A program made the translations under genes and the position numbers. The notes beneath the pieces were generated by a model. It was not told where the DNA came from and searched no databases. It worked only from the letters and a program-made list of their open reading frames with translations. Positions 1,569 through 8,574 of a stretch of 64,000 nt of DNA are shown in pieces. Numbering within the stretch: the stretch's first letter is position 1; every line of letters begins with the position of its first letter. Origin of the DNA: Tricharina praecox (taxonomy: Eukaryota); NCBI RefSeq assembly GCF_024521635.1, contig NW_026250405.1, forward strand, positions 248,001-312,000. Reading direction: 5' to 3'.

Positions 1569-2204
1569 ATGACGCCACCTACCGACGAAGAATCGAAACC
1601 TGCCTCCTCAACTTCATCAACAAGAACCATCACAGCAATCCCTCTCGAGGCGCCAGTGTCCCTGCCCCTCCGTCCTACCCTCCGCGAGCGCTACAACCAT
1701 CTCGTAACCCGGTTACTTCCACAGCCCTACTACCTCCATCCACTTCTCACCCGCTCCCGCCTCGCCATTGCTCTTCTCTCCTTCATTTTCCTCCTTCTGC
1801 TCCTGATAATCATCCTCCCCATCCTCCTCACCCACCGCTCATCCGCCAATGTTACCCTTCCAACCGGGGCAGAGACGTATTCTGGCGACGGCACGTACTA
1901 TGGCACCGGCCTTGGCGCATGCGGGATCGCCAGCAAAGACTCGCAGATGGTCGTCGCAATCGCCTGGGAGCTGTTCGATCACCTGGGTAAGGGCTCCGCT
2001 GGCGAGTTCAATCCCAACCTAAATCCCGTGTGTGGACGGAATATCCGGGCGCGGAGGGCGGGGCGCACGAAAGCCGTCGAGGTCACGGTTGTGGATCGAT
2101 GCACGGGATGCGAGCCGGAGGATTTGGATTTTAGTCCAACGGCGTTCAATGGCATTGCGGAGGAGTGGGAGGGCCGAGTGAGGATTGAGTGGGCGTGGGT
2201 TTAG
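1569..2204 (+). CDS. RlpA-like double-psi beta-barrel (expansin/loosenin, Asp f 7-like) protein with N-terminal membrane anchor
   Basis: GDGTYYGTGLGACG, NPNLNPVCGR, VTVVDRCTGC and DLDFSPTAF motifs; hydrophobic segment LAIALLSFIFLLLLLIIILPILL; TATAA about 60 nt upstream. Confidence 0.93.
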   Translation: MTPPTDEESKPASSTSSTRTITAIPLEAPVSLPLRPTLRERYNHLVTRLLPQPYYLHPLLTRSRLAIALLSFIFLLLLLIIILPILLTHRSSANVTLPTGAETYSGDGTYYGTGLGACGIASKDSQMVVAIAWELFDHLGKGSAGEFNPNLNPVCGRNIRARRAGRTKAVEVTVVDRCTGCEPEDLDFSPTAFNGIAEEWEGRVRIEWAWV

Positions 2205-3200: not shown

Positions 3201-4108
3201 GTCGGTCCATTTCTTGTTCAACACAACCACACAACTGACATCATCATCATAAACCTCTTTTCTAATTGGTCACGTTTTTTGATTACACACGTTCTTGGGT
3301 CTCTCAGTATTTACTTACTCTGCTACTACATACCGGGCCCATCATTGAGGCAGCAGCGCCACAACAACCGTCGCCACAGTCGAGGCCATCGTCCCTGCCG
3401 TGCTATCGCCCAACGCCCACGTCTGCGAGAACAAGGCACCGGAAACGGCACCCAAGCCAGCCAGATCCGATTCATTTCGATGCCCGTGGATCGTGGGCCT
3501 CACGTCAACCAGATCCCCCAGTCCGAACCCCCCCCCCCCCCCCCCCCCCCCCCACCCCCCCCTTCATTTGCTTGCTATGTGGAAAACGGAATCGGTAACT
3601 TCATGCACAGGCAGAAGGCCCGAGAATCCATTCAGGTTCAGTGAAACCGCTGCAGACTTGGTAATTCACGCTATCATACAATGATCAGCACTTCGTTACG
3701 GTTACCGGTAGCTCATCCACGGAACTGCTTGCACCTACGGTAGTTAAGCAGTAATATCGATGCTACAACTTCCACCTCCAACTACATATCAGGTAGGTAC
3801 CAGTCGAAAGAGTCCGGATTATGGTCCTTCGATTGTACGCAACTAACCTTCCTATGCCCACTGCGACATGCGGAATAGAAATACCAGCATCGTGTCGGGC
3901 GTAGAATGTCGGTCCGTACGTCTTATTTAAGCCCGCGTTTCTCTGGGACTCCCGTCTCTCTTCCTCCCACCACCAACCTCACCTACAAACACACGCAGAC
4001 CTCACCTAAAAATTCTTCTACAACGACTACAACTTCTTCTTCAACTTCTTCAACAACAACAACTCAAACCCAACCACCACTACCCACAAAAACACACAGC
4101 CAGGAAAC

Positions 4109-4312
4109 ATGTGCACCTGGAATCTCGTCACCTACGAGACGTGCGGCCACGTGATCCAATCCGGCTTCGACGGCTGTCTCTGCGTGAAGGCCATGGGGTA
4201 CGATCCTCCGCGCCCCTGCCTTTGGGAGCACGAAAATAAGTACATCAAGTCCAGGGAGAAGGGTTCTTGCCCGGGCTGTTCTGGGCAGATCCCCCTTGCT
4301 AGGGCGGGTTGA
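4109..4312 (+). CDS. 67-aa Cys/His-rich putative zinc-binding protein (MC-x9-CGH...C...C...CxxC)
   Basis: AAACATG context, TATA-like box near 3924, CA-rich leader; Cys/His pattern shared with the paralog at 5299. Confidence 0.8.
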   Translation: MCTWNLVTYETCGHVIQSGFDGCLCVKAMGYDPPRPCLWEHENKYIKSREKGSCPGCSGQIPLARAG

Positions 4313-5298
4313 CGGGTTGACGGGTTGGAGGTTGATATGGCGGGATGCTTTGATTTGCTTTGATTTGCTTTGATTTGCTTTGCTTTGATTTGCTTTGATT
4401 TAATTTGGATTTTGACATTTGGGAAATGCGAATTGGCGATTGGCGATTGGGAACTCTAGTGGTGTATCTTAAAGTATTCTAATCGATACTTGTCTTGCGA
4501 TATCAGTGCTGTTCCTGCCGTGATATCTCTCCGCCAAAGTAGCATCAAGCATGTACATAGTTACGTGTTTTGCGCTTCCCATCCGATACGATTTCCCGCA
4601 GAAACGGAAGCCGAATGGACCCTTAGAGAGTCTGTATATATCATATAGGGGTGAGCCGCATGGTGTTGAGAATGCGGTATGTCGCCCGGGGCCGGGATCC
4701 CATCCGTGGGCCATGGGCTTCACGTGAACCTGTTACCTAGTCCGCCAGTGCTCCACGTCCTGCACCCTGATTGCTATATCGAAAACCAGATTGGTGGAAA
4801 GGCATCCATTCGGGTTCGGTGAAACTGATGCGCATTGCGGACTTGGTATGTAATTCACGCTATCATGCAACGATCAGCACTTCGGTACGGATATCCCATC
4901 ATCAGAACTGCTTCTGAGTTGTAACTAGCATCCGTGCTACAATTTCCACCTTCAACTACTAGGCAGGTACCGCTCGAAAGAGTCTGGATTCTGGATTTTG
5001 GTCCTTCGATTGCACGCAACTAACCGTCCTTCTAACCCACTGTGACATGCGGAATAGAAATCCCAGCCGCGTTTCGGTCATAGAATGTCGATCATCGATG
5101 GGTACGTCTTATATAAGCCCGCAGTTCCCAGGCACTCTCGTCTCTTTTCCTCCCCCCATCAACCTCCTCTACCCACGCCGACTTCACCTACAATCTCTTC
5201 AACAATAACAACTCAACCCCACCACCATACCCAACCACCACACCCAACCACCACACCCAACCACTACACACATCCACCCACACATCCAGCGACGAACC

Positions 5299-5511
5299 AT
5301 GTGCACCTAGAACTCAATAACGCACACAGCGTGCGGCCACGTGGTCCATTCCGCCGCCGCCGGTTCGCACTGCGCGGTGGCGCTGAAGTACGATCCTCCG
5401 CGCGACTGCATGTGGGAGAACAGGTTGCGCAACATCACGTACGTCAAGTCGGAGAAAGAGGGGCCTTGCTTGAGTTGTATTGCGGGGATCAACTTTGGTG
5501 TGCCCGGTTGA
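5299..5511 (+). pseudogene. Paralog of 4109..4312 with in-frame TAG at codon 4 (Trp in the paralog); pseudogene or recoded gene
   Basis: ATG TGC ACC TAG AAC... reads MCT*NSITHTACGHVVHSAAAGSHCAVALKYDPPRDCMWENRLRNITYVKSEKEGPCLSCIAGINFGVPG; not in the ORF track. Confidence 0.85.
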
Positions 5512-6166: not shown

Positions 6167-6915
6167 TCAAAACTCGACAGTACTAGTGACAGTAACCACC
6201 TTCACTGTCTCCGCCGTCACCACCAAAGCCGTCGCGGCTGGAGTTGCCGTTATGATGATGGATACGGTCGTAGTCCTGGGACACGCGATGGTAGTCGTTT
6301 TCTTTGCCGGCTGGTTCTTCCTGTAGATCGTAGTGATGGTAGGCGACGGCACCGTGACCGTTGTCGGCACCGTGGTCGACACAGTTGTGGAAGAAGCCGC
6401 CGGAGATGTGACGAGCCGGGAACAGGCCGAGGAGATAGCGACGGGGGGAGCGGGAGTGGGTTTGATGTTTGTGAAGATCCACGACGTGGAGGAGGTAGTC
6501 GTAGTTGTCGTCGAGGTCACTAGTTGAAACAATCGCTGTCAGCTCACGTCGGTCCGACGGACGGCAGGAGTGCATGAATAAAGGAAAACCAACCTATCGG
6601 CGCGGCCGCGACAACGGTCGACGTCCGTGTGAATGTGATCTCCTTCTCGAGTGTGACGGTGACCACGGCCGCGCCCGCCGGCGCATACACCGTCCCCGTG
6701 GTCAGCTGGGATTTGGTGACGGTCGAGTACTCGGTTTCTGTGCGCGTGTGTGTTTCCGGCCGGTATGAGAGGAACGCCGAGCAGTACTCGTGCTGCTCCT
6801 GCGTAAGCAGGACGCTGTACAGGTCCTCCGCTTGGCCGAGCGGCTTCTGCGCCGGAACGCTGGCGAGGACCGCCACCGCGAGGGAAAGGAACGTTAGTGT
6901 CGTGGGGAGAAGCAT
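6167..6915 (-). CDS. Secreted Ser/Thr-rich cell-surface protein, 2 exons (intron 6520-6593)
   Basis: Signal peptide MLLPTTLTFLSLAVAVLA; YCSAFL and ISSACS motifs; GTTGGT...CTGAC...TAG intron joins the two ORFs in frame; TATATA upstream near 7002. Confidence 0.85.
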
Positions 6916-8574
6916 GGTCGTGAAGAGTTGTAGAGTGTGTAGTTAGCGATGCGGTGTGGTGATGTGCGAGGCATCCATCCCCAGGCCGCCGGCGGGGCGA
7001 GATATATACTCTCCAAATCCTCCCCTCTCCTGACTCCTGAGTTGGCCCCCGCATCAGGCCCACAATGAATGCATCGTGAACTTCAAGCGGTGGAGATGAG
7101 AGCCAACAGACAATCCCTGCTGGTGTGCCGTCCCCTGCATCCGCACGGCCCAAAACCTTGTGCGAGTGCTGAAAACCGCGTGCGGGGAGCAGATCATCAT
7201 AGGGATTTGGCCCCGGCTTTGTGTCTCGTGTGTGACCAGCGCCGCTATGCTTGCTTCTTACCGCCAAGCCGACGCAAAAGAAGCGAAGGTTATCTTAACT
7301 CCTGACCGCGTGCGCATTGAAACGGGCTGGCGTGTGCCGCGAAGCTGCTCATTGGATCCTCATACAACCATTCTGGGCACATCCATCTCGGGTGCCCCTT
7401 AAAGCACCGCATCGCCCAGATGCGGGAATGAAGATGACGGAATTCCAGCTGCGGCACAGGCACAGGTACGAGGCGGCCCCTCGGAGGATTTGCGCACACA
7501 CAAGAGATTCTCCATCCTCAGTCGATATGCACATACAAGAGATTTTCCATCATCAGTCGATGTCAGGGTTTCTCGGGCTTGCTGACACGACACGACCCCA
7601 CGTTCGTTCAGGCTTCCAGCCATCAGCGCATAGGTGGTGCGGTCCTGTCAGAAGAGATACCGTGTCCTTTGGGCACGGGATATCGAGATCTTAGGGTGGC
7701 TACTGTGGCATGGTGACGTATGCGCAAGGAGACGTTTTTCATTATATTGAGAGGCACTGATGCATGCTGTTTGAGTATCTACTGAGTTTGGGCAGCCTCG
7801 TCCACCCGACTCACCGCCGCCGCGCCAAGCCCAAACCACAACGTTTTCCGGGCCATCTGTTGGAATTGAGAGAAGAACTTGACTTGATTGATGTAATTGA
7901 TACGAGAAAGATGATAAAGATGACTGCTCATGAAGGAAACGAGCTCGTGTAGACAACGAGGAAGCCGAGCCTCGGACAGAGGATGCGACGATAGCCGTCG
8001 CCGGACTCAGCTGGGGGCTTGAAGGCATAAAGATGCTGACTCTGGTGAGAAGCCACGACAATGCTAAGCAGCCACGAACGAGATGAGTGCAGTATGCGAA
8101 AGGACAGTGGAAAGTACATAGCAGTGACACCTGAACATGCAATAAGACACATAATATCCATGATTCCATCATGCGCCTTTCGACGAATGATTTGACATGA
8201 CGGTCACCCTCGACGGCAACTTACAATGGAGCAGCTTACAACGTAACCACTCGAAGCCCAGACCTAGGTGTATGATAGGTACATTGCAGCGGCAAATCAT
8301 TGACTCTATAGGATACCATGACCCGCCTCCCCCCTCTCCCTTCCTTCTTTTTGTAAAAATAATCACGACTTTTCTTCTTCGTCCATTCTCCCTTGTGCTA
8401 TTCATCCAGCACCTCATTTTTAGATTGATGTGTTTCAATCACCGATTCCCGGTGCTCGTTCCGGTAAAATCAGGAAAGCGATTAACGGGACCCATTGCTG
8501 CTGTTCTGCTTTTCACTGCTTGGGGTTGCTAGTCTCCTCATCACTCGTTAAATCCCACATTGCGGACCCCCGGT

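Follow-up and report, generated by a model that had tools for sequence, protein, structure and literature searches.

A tandem duplicate of a small Cys/His gene in Tricharina praecox with an in-frame TAG at a tryptophan codon: a candidate for A-to-I stop-codon repair

The tandem pair, its promoters and its orthologue

We analyzed a 64,000-nucleotide stretch of the Tricharina praecox genome, referred to here as the window, in which two related small genes (copy A and copy B) lie in tandem (Table 1). The first five codons are ATG TGC ACC TGG AAT in copy A and ATG TGC ACC TAG AAC in copy B; after the TAG, 66 open codons follow in copy B before a TGA. The sequence reading therefore agrees with the preliminary description of the locus, which had set TGG in A against TAG in B at codon 4 with the rest of B open, and alignment confirmed that B is colinear with A apart from a single in-frame insertion of three codons. 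The description had also listed motifs retained despite divergence; C2, CGH, C25, YDPPRxCxWE and CxxC are indeed all present in B, and C23 has been lost. The spacing of the duplication is about 1,180-1,190 bases and takes in the promoter and the 3' region. A genome-wide protein search (38.4 Mb, 104 contigs) returned copies A and B only. A long poly-C tract at 3528-3560 lies immediately 5' of the duplicated unit.

Table 1. Features of the tandem pair and its surroundings (positions within the window)
Feature	Position	Strand	Remarks
Upstream neighbour, DPBB_1-like	1569..2204	+	Just below the Pfam cut-off; synteny marker for the orthologous locus
Copy A promoter and 5' leader	3625..4108	+	AGAATG 3903-3908; TATA-like TATTTAA 3924-3930
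Copy A	4109..4312	+	Intact gene, 67-aa Cys/His protein; MCTWN start; Trp (TGG) is codon 4
Copy B promoter and 5' leader	4805..5298	+	AGAATG 5082-5087; TATATAA 5110-5116
X1 RNA contig	5176..5345	+	170 letters, depth 4; bridges the TAG without a gap; 1 mismatch of unlisted position
Copy B	5299..5511	+	70 codons, all open except TAG at codon 4
Predicted weak hairpin	5300..5326	+	5-bp stem; 17-nt loop 5305-5321; A5309 in loop
In-frame TAG opposite copy A Trp4	5308..5310	+	Candidate edited A is 5309; context C-U-A-G-A-A-C
First ATG past the copy B stop	5410..5412	+	In frame, codon 38; possible re-initiation site, 33-aa tail
In-frame insertion in copy B	5419..5427	+	9 nt (3 codons); exact placement approximate
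Downstream Thr-rich neighbour	6180..6916	-	Synteny marker; spliced 74-nt intron 6520-6593; gene 3' end approximate

The conservation of the promoter claimed earlier was borne out: the upstream regions of A and B are 81.5% identical over 373 aligned bases (69 differences and 9 indels), and promoter blocks are common to A, B and the orthologue described below. In all three genes AGAATG lies 13-22 bases 5' of a TATA-like box (Table 1; L010:5777-5782 in the orthologue). Its reverse, CATTCT, is a sequence that we take to resemble an AbaA/Tec1 (TEA) site. Further diverged duplications (76-86%) were seen elsewhere in the window, at 46371-46599/50731-50959, 41724-41916/43518-43695 and 42889-43095/43689-43934, the first of these pairs lying within two similar unnamed membrane-protein-like frames.

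A profile built from A and B was searched against 1.84 billion representatives and gave five matches, one of which, P0003 (66 aa, E 3.5e-13), was a true relative; P0004 and P0005, the other two of the matches examined, are repeat proteins. P0003 shares 44-45% identity with copy A. The two metagenome loci that encode it, L010 and L011, come from a single organism, are 99.9% alike and carry the same flanking genes as the window on both sides at 69-79% DNA identity. The gene there is single-copy and intact, and its codon 4 is TTC (Phe). The existence of a syntenic, intact orthologue indicates that the gene is real. Judged from these sequences, the duplication appears to be specific to this lineage, and the TAG of copy B is placed after it. 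The orthologue-bearing species, the one relative found, predates the duplication; no other strain or species with the TAG turned up. At the locus of the related species an extra 307-aa frame (L010:4039-4962, minus strand) separates the DPBB-like gene from the small gene; it has no Pfam match, and we saw no counterpart of it in the window. The orthologue ends in TAG (L010:6199-6201) and both A and B end in TGA; editing of the orthologue's stop would lengthen its protein.

A word-indexed homologue search with copy A gave no match, a three-sequence profile search found no relatives beyond P0003, and Pfam gave no match above cut-off, so that the family has no name. In the ESM Atlas the nearest entries were unnamed Ascomycota hypothetical-protein clusters of 66-85 aa (feature score 0.91, TM 0.54-0.59); by score these small fungal proteins resemble the family, and with neither a Pfam family nor a function they serve as leads only. 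An AlphaFold2 model made from three sequences was of low confidence (pLDDT 46). The pattern of C2, CGH, C25, C37 and CxxC suggests that the protein probably binds zinc.

Divergence, constraint and transcription of copy B

The coding regions of A and B differ at 66 of 204 bases with one indel, which is in frame, and the same residue occupies 29 of the 66 aligned sense codons. Divergence is larger in the coding parts (32%) than in the promoters (18.5%), and A is equally distant from B (45% protein identity) and from the orthologue of the other species (44%). The sequences suggest rapid change after the duplication around a fixed scaffold. Pairwise dN was 0.44 and dS 0.40 (dN/dS 1.1), and branch omega was 0.67 for A and 0.61 for B, neither significantly below 1; these ratios are inflated because codon bias holds synonymous change down. 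A check proposed earlier, dN/dS below 1 downstream of the stop, thus failed as a whole-gene number. The copy B branch was estimated at 0.27-0.41 substitutions per site.

Residue by residue, B has kept 19 of the 29 positions common to A and the orthologue versus 10 of the 36 others (Fisher P 0.003), a contrast partly expected from constraint on A alone. All 8 Cys, His and Trp residues common to A and the orthologue are kept in B (P 0.018, given 10 losses among the 29); the 10 lost include P36, G56 and G59. Polarized amino acid changes numbered 10 in B and 6 in A (P 0.45). In neutral simulations scored for sequences that kept the start, the 8 Cys/His/Trp residues and the frame, with at most one stop, drift since the duplication had P = 0.02 at 0.1 substitutions per site and P < 0.001 from 0.2 upward. 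The pattern of retained residues, the restriction of coding indels to an in-frame one and the simulations together argue that B has been under protein-level selection for most of its life. In this comparison the constraint is confined to the Cys/His/Trp scaffold. Past selection on B does not separate a living gene from a recently killed one.

Four of five available runs were compared with the window. X1 and X2 are RNA, since the intron of the downstream Thr-rich neighbour is spliced out in them. Over copy B there is one X1 contig (Table 1), in which 5309 lies 133 and 36 letters from the ends, and this points weakly to transcription of copy B, library DNA being another possible source of a single depth-4 contig. 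No A>G is listed at 5309 in the four runs, with one contig, of unspecified tissue, over the site. The listed differences leave out those near contig ends, at an unstated distance, and the list for this contig is empty, so most probably its mismatch falls close to one end, leaving A at 5309. As the tissue of the run is unspecified, an unedited X1 read would not count against editing in sexual tissue. Copy A is covered by an X2 contig (4015-4180, 0 mismatches), and long contigs match the window with 0 mismatches (967 and 910 letters in X1, 675 and 955 in X2). X3 and X4 have nothing over A or B, and uncovered stretches carry no evidence. Exact look-ups of seven frames over the spans of the two contigs, of a read-through copy B and of its codon-38 tail gave no match, nor did the two control frames, and they are uninformative. 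Removal of the TAG by splicing was rejected: the nearest GT would give a 10-nt intron, and the RNA contig is ungapped.

RNA editing in the lineage and the context of the TAG

The editing mechanism itself is already known, from Sordariomycetes, and the characterized sexual-stage genes with an editing-repaired premature stop (PSC genes) that we read about are all from that class. In Fusarium graminearum and Neurospora crassa they include PUK1, AMD1, FgAMA1 and FgRID; 71 PSC genes are reported, 43 of which encode no known domain (PMC10776026, PMC11156358). The essential Fusarium PSC sites are described as mostly N-terminal or within or before conserved domains and as derived mainly from TGG, and Qi et al. 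trace every Fusarium PSC stop to an origin inside Sordariomycetes (PMC10776026). Copy B resembles these genes in having one early in-frame UAG at a Trp position, preceded by U at -1, where A>G would restore the frame, in encoding a hypothetical protein and in a TAG derived from TGG. Unlike them, it belongs to Pezizomycetes, a different class in which editing has been proposed to have arisen independently; its TAG is young, a TGG twin lies 1.2 kb upstream, the product would be 70 aa, and its editing and sexual-stage expression are putative.

Sexual-stage editing has been published for Pyronema confluens, of the same lineage and with the same Ame1 duplication: A-to-G sites confined to the sexual stage number 2,772, and 149 of these are stop-loss (PMC5381528). 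In the test sites of Fig. S2 of that paper, U stands at -1 in 15 of 16, UAG occurs in 6 of 16 and UAGAA in 5 of 16; 15 of the 16 were verified, and the unverified one was not UAG (PMC5381528). Outside the stop-loss sheets of its Table S3, which may list premature-stop genes, the paper describes nonsynonymous edits and stop-loss edits at annotated stops and names no premature-stop gene (PMC5381528). In the literature searched, to which subscription papers did not belong, we found neither an editing report for the genus Tricharina nor a Pezizomycete PSC gene.

Two Ame1 orthologues each are listed for Tricharina, both Pyronema species, Sphaerosporella, Wilcoxina, Trichophaea and Ascodesmis (PMC11087585 Supplementary Data 6), and Pezizomycete editing may have come with this duplication (PMC11087585). 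One protein encoded in the window clusters at 90% or more with a Tricharina praecox record. The genome contains two intronless DUF726 genes and a third with introns. Two of the DUF726 genes exactly match Tricharina praecox records, and one protein is letter-for-letter XP_051342697.1, one of the two Ame1 orthologues of the species (PMC11087585). In a quick tree of 35 proteins the two intronless genes fell in separate subclades of one group. The KN>MV site lets Fusarium Ame1 bind Tad3 (PMC11087585). At its probable counterpart, a position inferred from that paper's numbering (off by one) and not from an alignment with Fusarium Ame1, the copy at L003:1354-3024 (minus strand, contig C2) reads MR and the copy at L004:922-3072 (contig C39) reads KH. 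M occupies this position in 4 of 117 homologues, each of them from the group to which the duplicated copies belong, and one Pyronema copy reads KQ. No solved structure for Ame1 was found. It is quite probable that this species edits in its apothecia.

The site in copy B, CUAGAAC, has the UAGAA context of the 5 Pyronema sites among the 16 chosen for cDNA checks. Measured against base preferences taken from Fusarium (PMC9600606), B has the preferred base at -2, -1, +1 and +3 and lacks it at +2 and +4. Three of seven folding windows put A5309 in the loop of a hairpin, as the 61-base fold does, with an unpaired probability of 0.76-0.98; the folding z-score was 0.17, and 180 of 608 TAG sites in the window (30%) also fell in hairpin loops. 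B has the U at -1, the purines at +1 and +3 and the hairpin loop typical of PSC sites, features that are largely automatic for TGG>TAG. Since U-1 and G+1 follow any TGG>TAG change and the AA is inherited from Asn5, the context speaks to editability and not to selection for it. If the species edits and copy B is expressed in apothecia, A5309 would be a good substrate. A>G at this position would restore the full-length frame, with Trp at codon 4 as in copy A (the orthologue has Phe).

Copy B was also compared with the OLD-ZAO system (zao-1/zao-2, CHE1; commentary in PMC12754623), which likewise involves a UAG-to-UIG change in a hairpin loop, with U at -1, in a paralogous pair. There both paralogues carry the stop, and here copy B alone does (PMC12754623). 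We found no OTT_1508 deaminase on the contig of copy B (C28), the four genome matches lying on C8, C50, C47 and C11; the OLD-ZAO target is a zinc-finger transcription factor, but B has no Pfam family, and a strict pattern search detected no C2H2 finger in the window. On these grounds copy B was rejected as an OLD-ZAO module.

Searches of low power found no second clear PSC-like gene in this genome. The 4 DNA-methylase matches contained no stop, and RhoGAP showed no TAG. Among 30 TAG-bearing kinase matches the 23 examined all looked like intron edges; the three TAGs that fell in matches to Cdc20-type WD40 and glycosyltransferase-15 likewise marked intron edges, and those in the third DUF726 locus were introns. 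Equal-score kinase matches on different contigs (C13:17343-17771/C82:9505-9933 and C17:1625641-1626345/C52:65914-66618) suggest that some assembly contigs are duplicated or redundant. When 864 kb was scanned on intrinsic features, 13 of 2,224 stops had coding-like flanks (6 TAG, 5 TGA, 2 TAA), of which 11 fit an in-frame intron under a permissive rule, 1 looked like a true end and 1 like a decayed retroelement. At 71 genes per genome about 1.6 would be expected in the scanned sequence before sensitivity losses, and the scan would miss B itself, so its blank result is uninformative. Near position 4005 of L093 (plus strand) a long frame with an in-frame TAG looks, from its motif, like a decayed Ty3/gypsy pol. 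We also noted an OTT_1508-like deaminase gene (HCE...CC..C) with an in-frame TAG inside the domain (L052:4731-4733, minus strand; C50, about 933730; HGKVYP*WDI, the asterisk marking the stop). There is no room for an intron, the C8 paralogue has Arg, and the frame continues for about 100 codons; this gene, like copy B, is a candidate for either editing or a fresh break.

Competing explanations and their implications

The probabilities attached to the competing readings are judgements and were not computed. The reading most at odds with the data makes copy B an old pseudogene or a victim of RIP that died soon after it was duplicated. The preliminary description had cautioned that TGG>TAG is also the RIP change (CpA>TpA on the minus strand), and the genome does have C5-methyltransferase genes with open domains; against this, A and B differ by 70 transitions and 65 transversions, there are 2 changes in CpA context on the side of B and 8 on that of A, and the composite RIP index is negative (-0.40 for B, -0.34 for the window), leaving the caveat unsupported. 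The pairwise dN/dS of about 1.1 would suit early death, but the neutral simulation rejects it (P 0.02 or less). We regard this reading as largely refuted and very improbable. An assembly error at 5309, with B an ordinary intact paralogue, would find room in the one unplaced mismatch among the 170 letters of the sole RNA contig over the site. Yet no difference is listed there in spite of its distance from both contig ends, and the long X1 and X2 contigs agree fully with the window, so that an error is improbable. Copy B might also work without editing, by re-initiation after the MCT frame or by low-rate UAG readthrough. Fungal ribosomes can re-initiate once they have translated a very short upstream frame, and the ATG at codon 38, the first after the stop, is specific to B (Leu in copy A, Thr in the orthologue). 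However, the N-terminal scaffold (C12, G13, H14, C25 and C37) has been kept although it is absent from the 33-aa product, and to our knowledge the UAG context of copy B is not among the readthrough-prone ones; we give either route little credence.

Recent death of copy B is a far stronger contender, as the preliminary description had allowed in calling it equally possible. In this case an ordinary G>A would have hit a redundant copy that selection had maintained until recently, making B either a freshly killed duplicate or a loss-of-function allele at the strain level; the promoter and a low-level transcript would remain, and any editing would be incidental. Copy A is intact and adjacent, and the related species manages with a single copy. 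Because B has no CAA, CAG or CGA codons, a single transition can create a stop only at one of its two Trp codons. B has also lost 10 of the residues common to A and the orthologue, has gained an insertion and has no A>G listed at 5309. Against this, death must have been very fresh, the next visible lesion being expected after about 0.02 substitutions per site (a rough sum) versus a branch of 0.27-0.41. Of the nonsense changes available to B, 13% are TGG>TAG, and with start loss and frameshifts counted in, a first hit of this type accounts for only about 4% of killing hits. In addition, both the lineage and the site context fit editing.

The alternative that we favour, at a probability of about 0.45, is that copy B is an editing-repaired (PSC) gene. 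Its anatomy, the constraint on its scaffold, the transcript over the site, the lineage, the Ame1 pair and the sequence context are observed, and from these we infer the following. Copy B would be a transcribed tandem duplicate of a gene for a small Cys/His, probably zinc-binding, protein, in which the TGG of Trp4 became TAG after the duplication. In vegetative cells its translation would end after three residues. In fruiting bodies, where copy B would be expressed, A-to-I editing, putatively by Tad2-Tad3 with the duplicated Ame1, would turn A5309 into inosine; UIG would be read as Trp, giving a 70-aa protein with its scaffold intact, possibly of some importance there, beside the editing-independent copy A. 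In favour of this reading, the only lesion of copy B is one that a single A-to-I change reverses exactly. Against it, copy B is dispensable in principle with an intact copy A next door, the site was picked for study because the TAG fell at a Trp, and the predicted hairpin is weak and of a common kind. The editing proposal of the preliminary description thus holds in part: a Pyronema relative with published sexual editing, the Ame1 duplication and the UAGAA context support it, and loss of a redundant copy fits equally well. Editing repair and recent death are about equally likely, and rough estimates of their rates overlap. Should 5309 prove unedited, copy B would simply be a fresh pseudogene of the ordinary kind.

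Opinion is divided between restorative editing as neutral baggage and as an adaptive switch (PMC10776026, PMC13431901). One view treats such stops as harm permitted by editing (PMC13431901), and on that view even an edited copy B need not be adaptive. The broader proposition, that premature-stop correction evolved a second time, in Pezizomycetes, and that the tandem pair combines a hard-wired TGG copy with a fruiting-body-only TAG copy of a small zinc-binding gene, is one that we put forward tentatively and consider somewhat doubtful. If it is true, copy B would be, within the literature searched, the first PSC gene from a Pezizomycete, and a case in this class, for whose editing an independent origin has been proposed, would mean convergence. 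A young stop with an unedited twin adjoining it is an in-genome control, and the pair would offer a natural side-by-side test of a neutral versus an adaptive origin of restorative editing.
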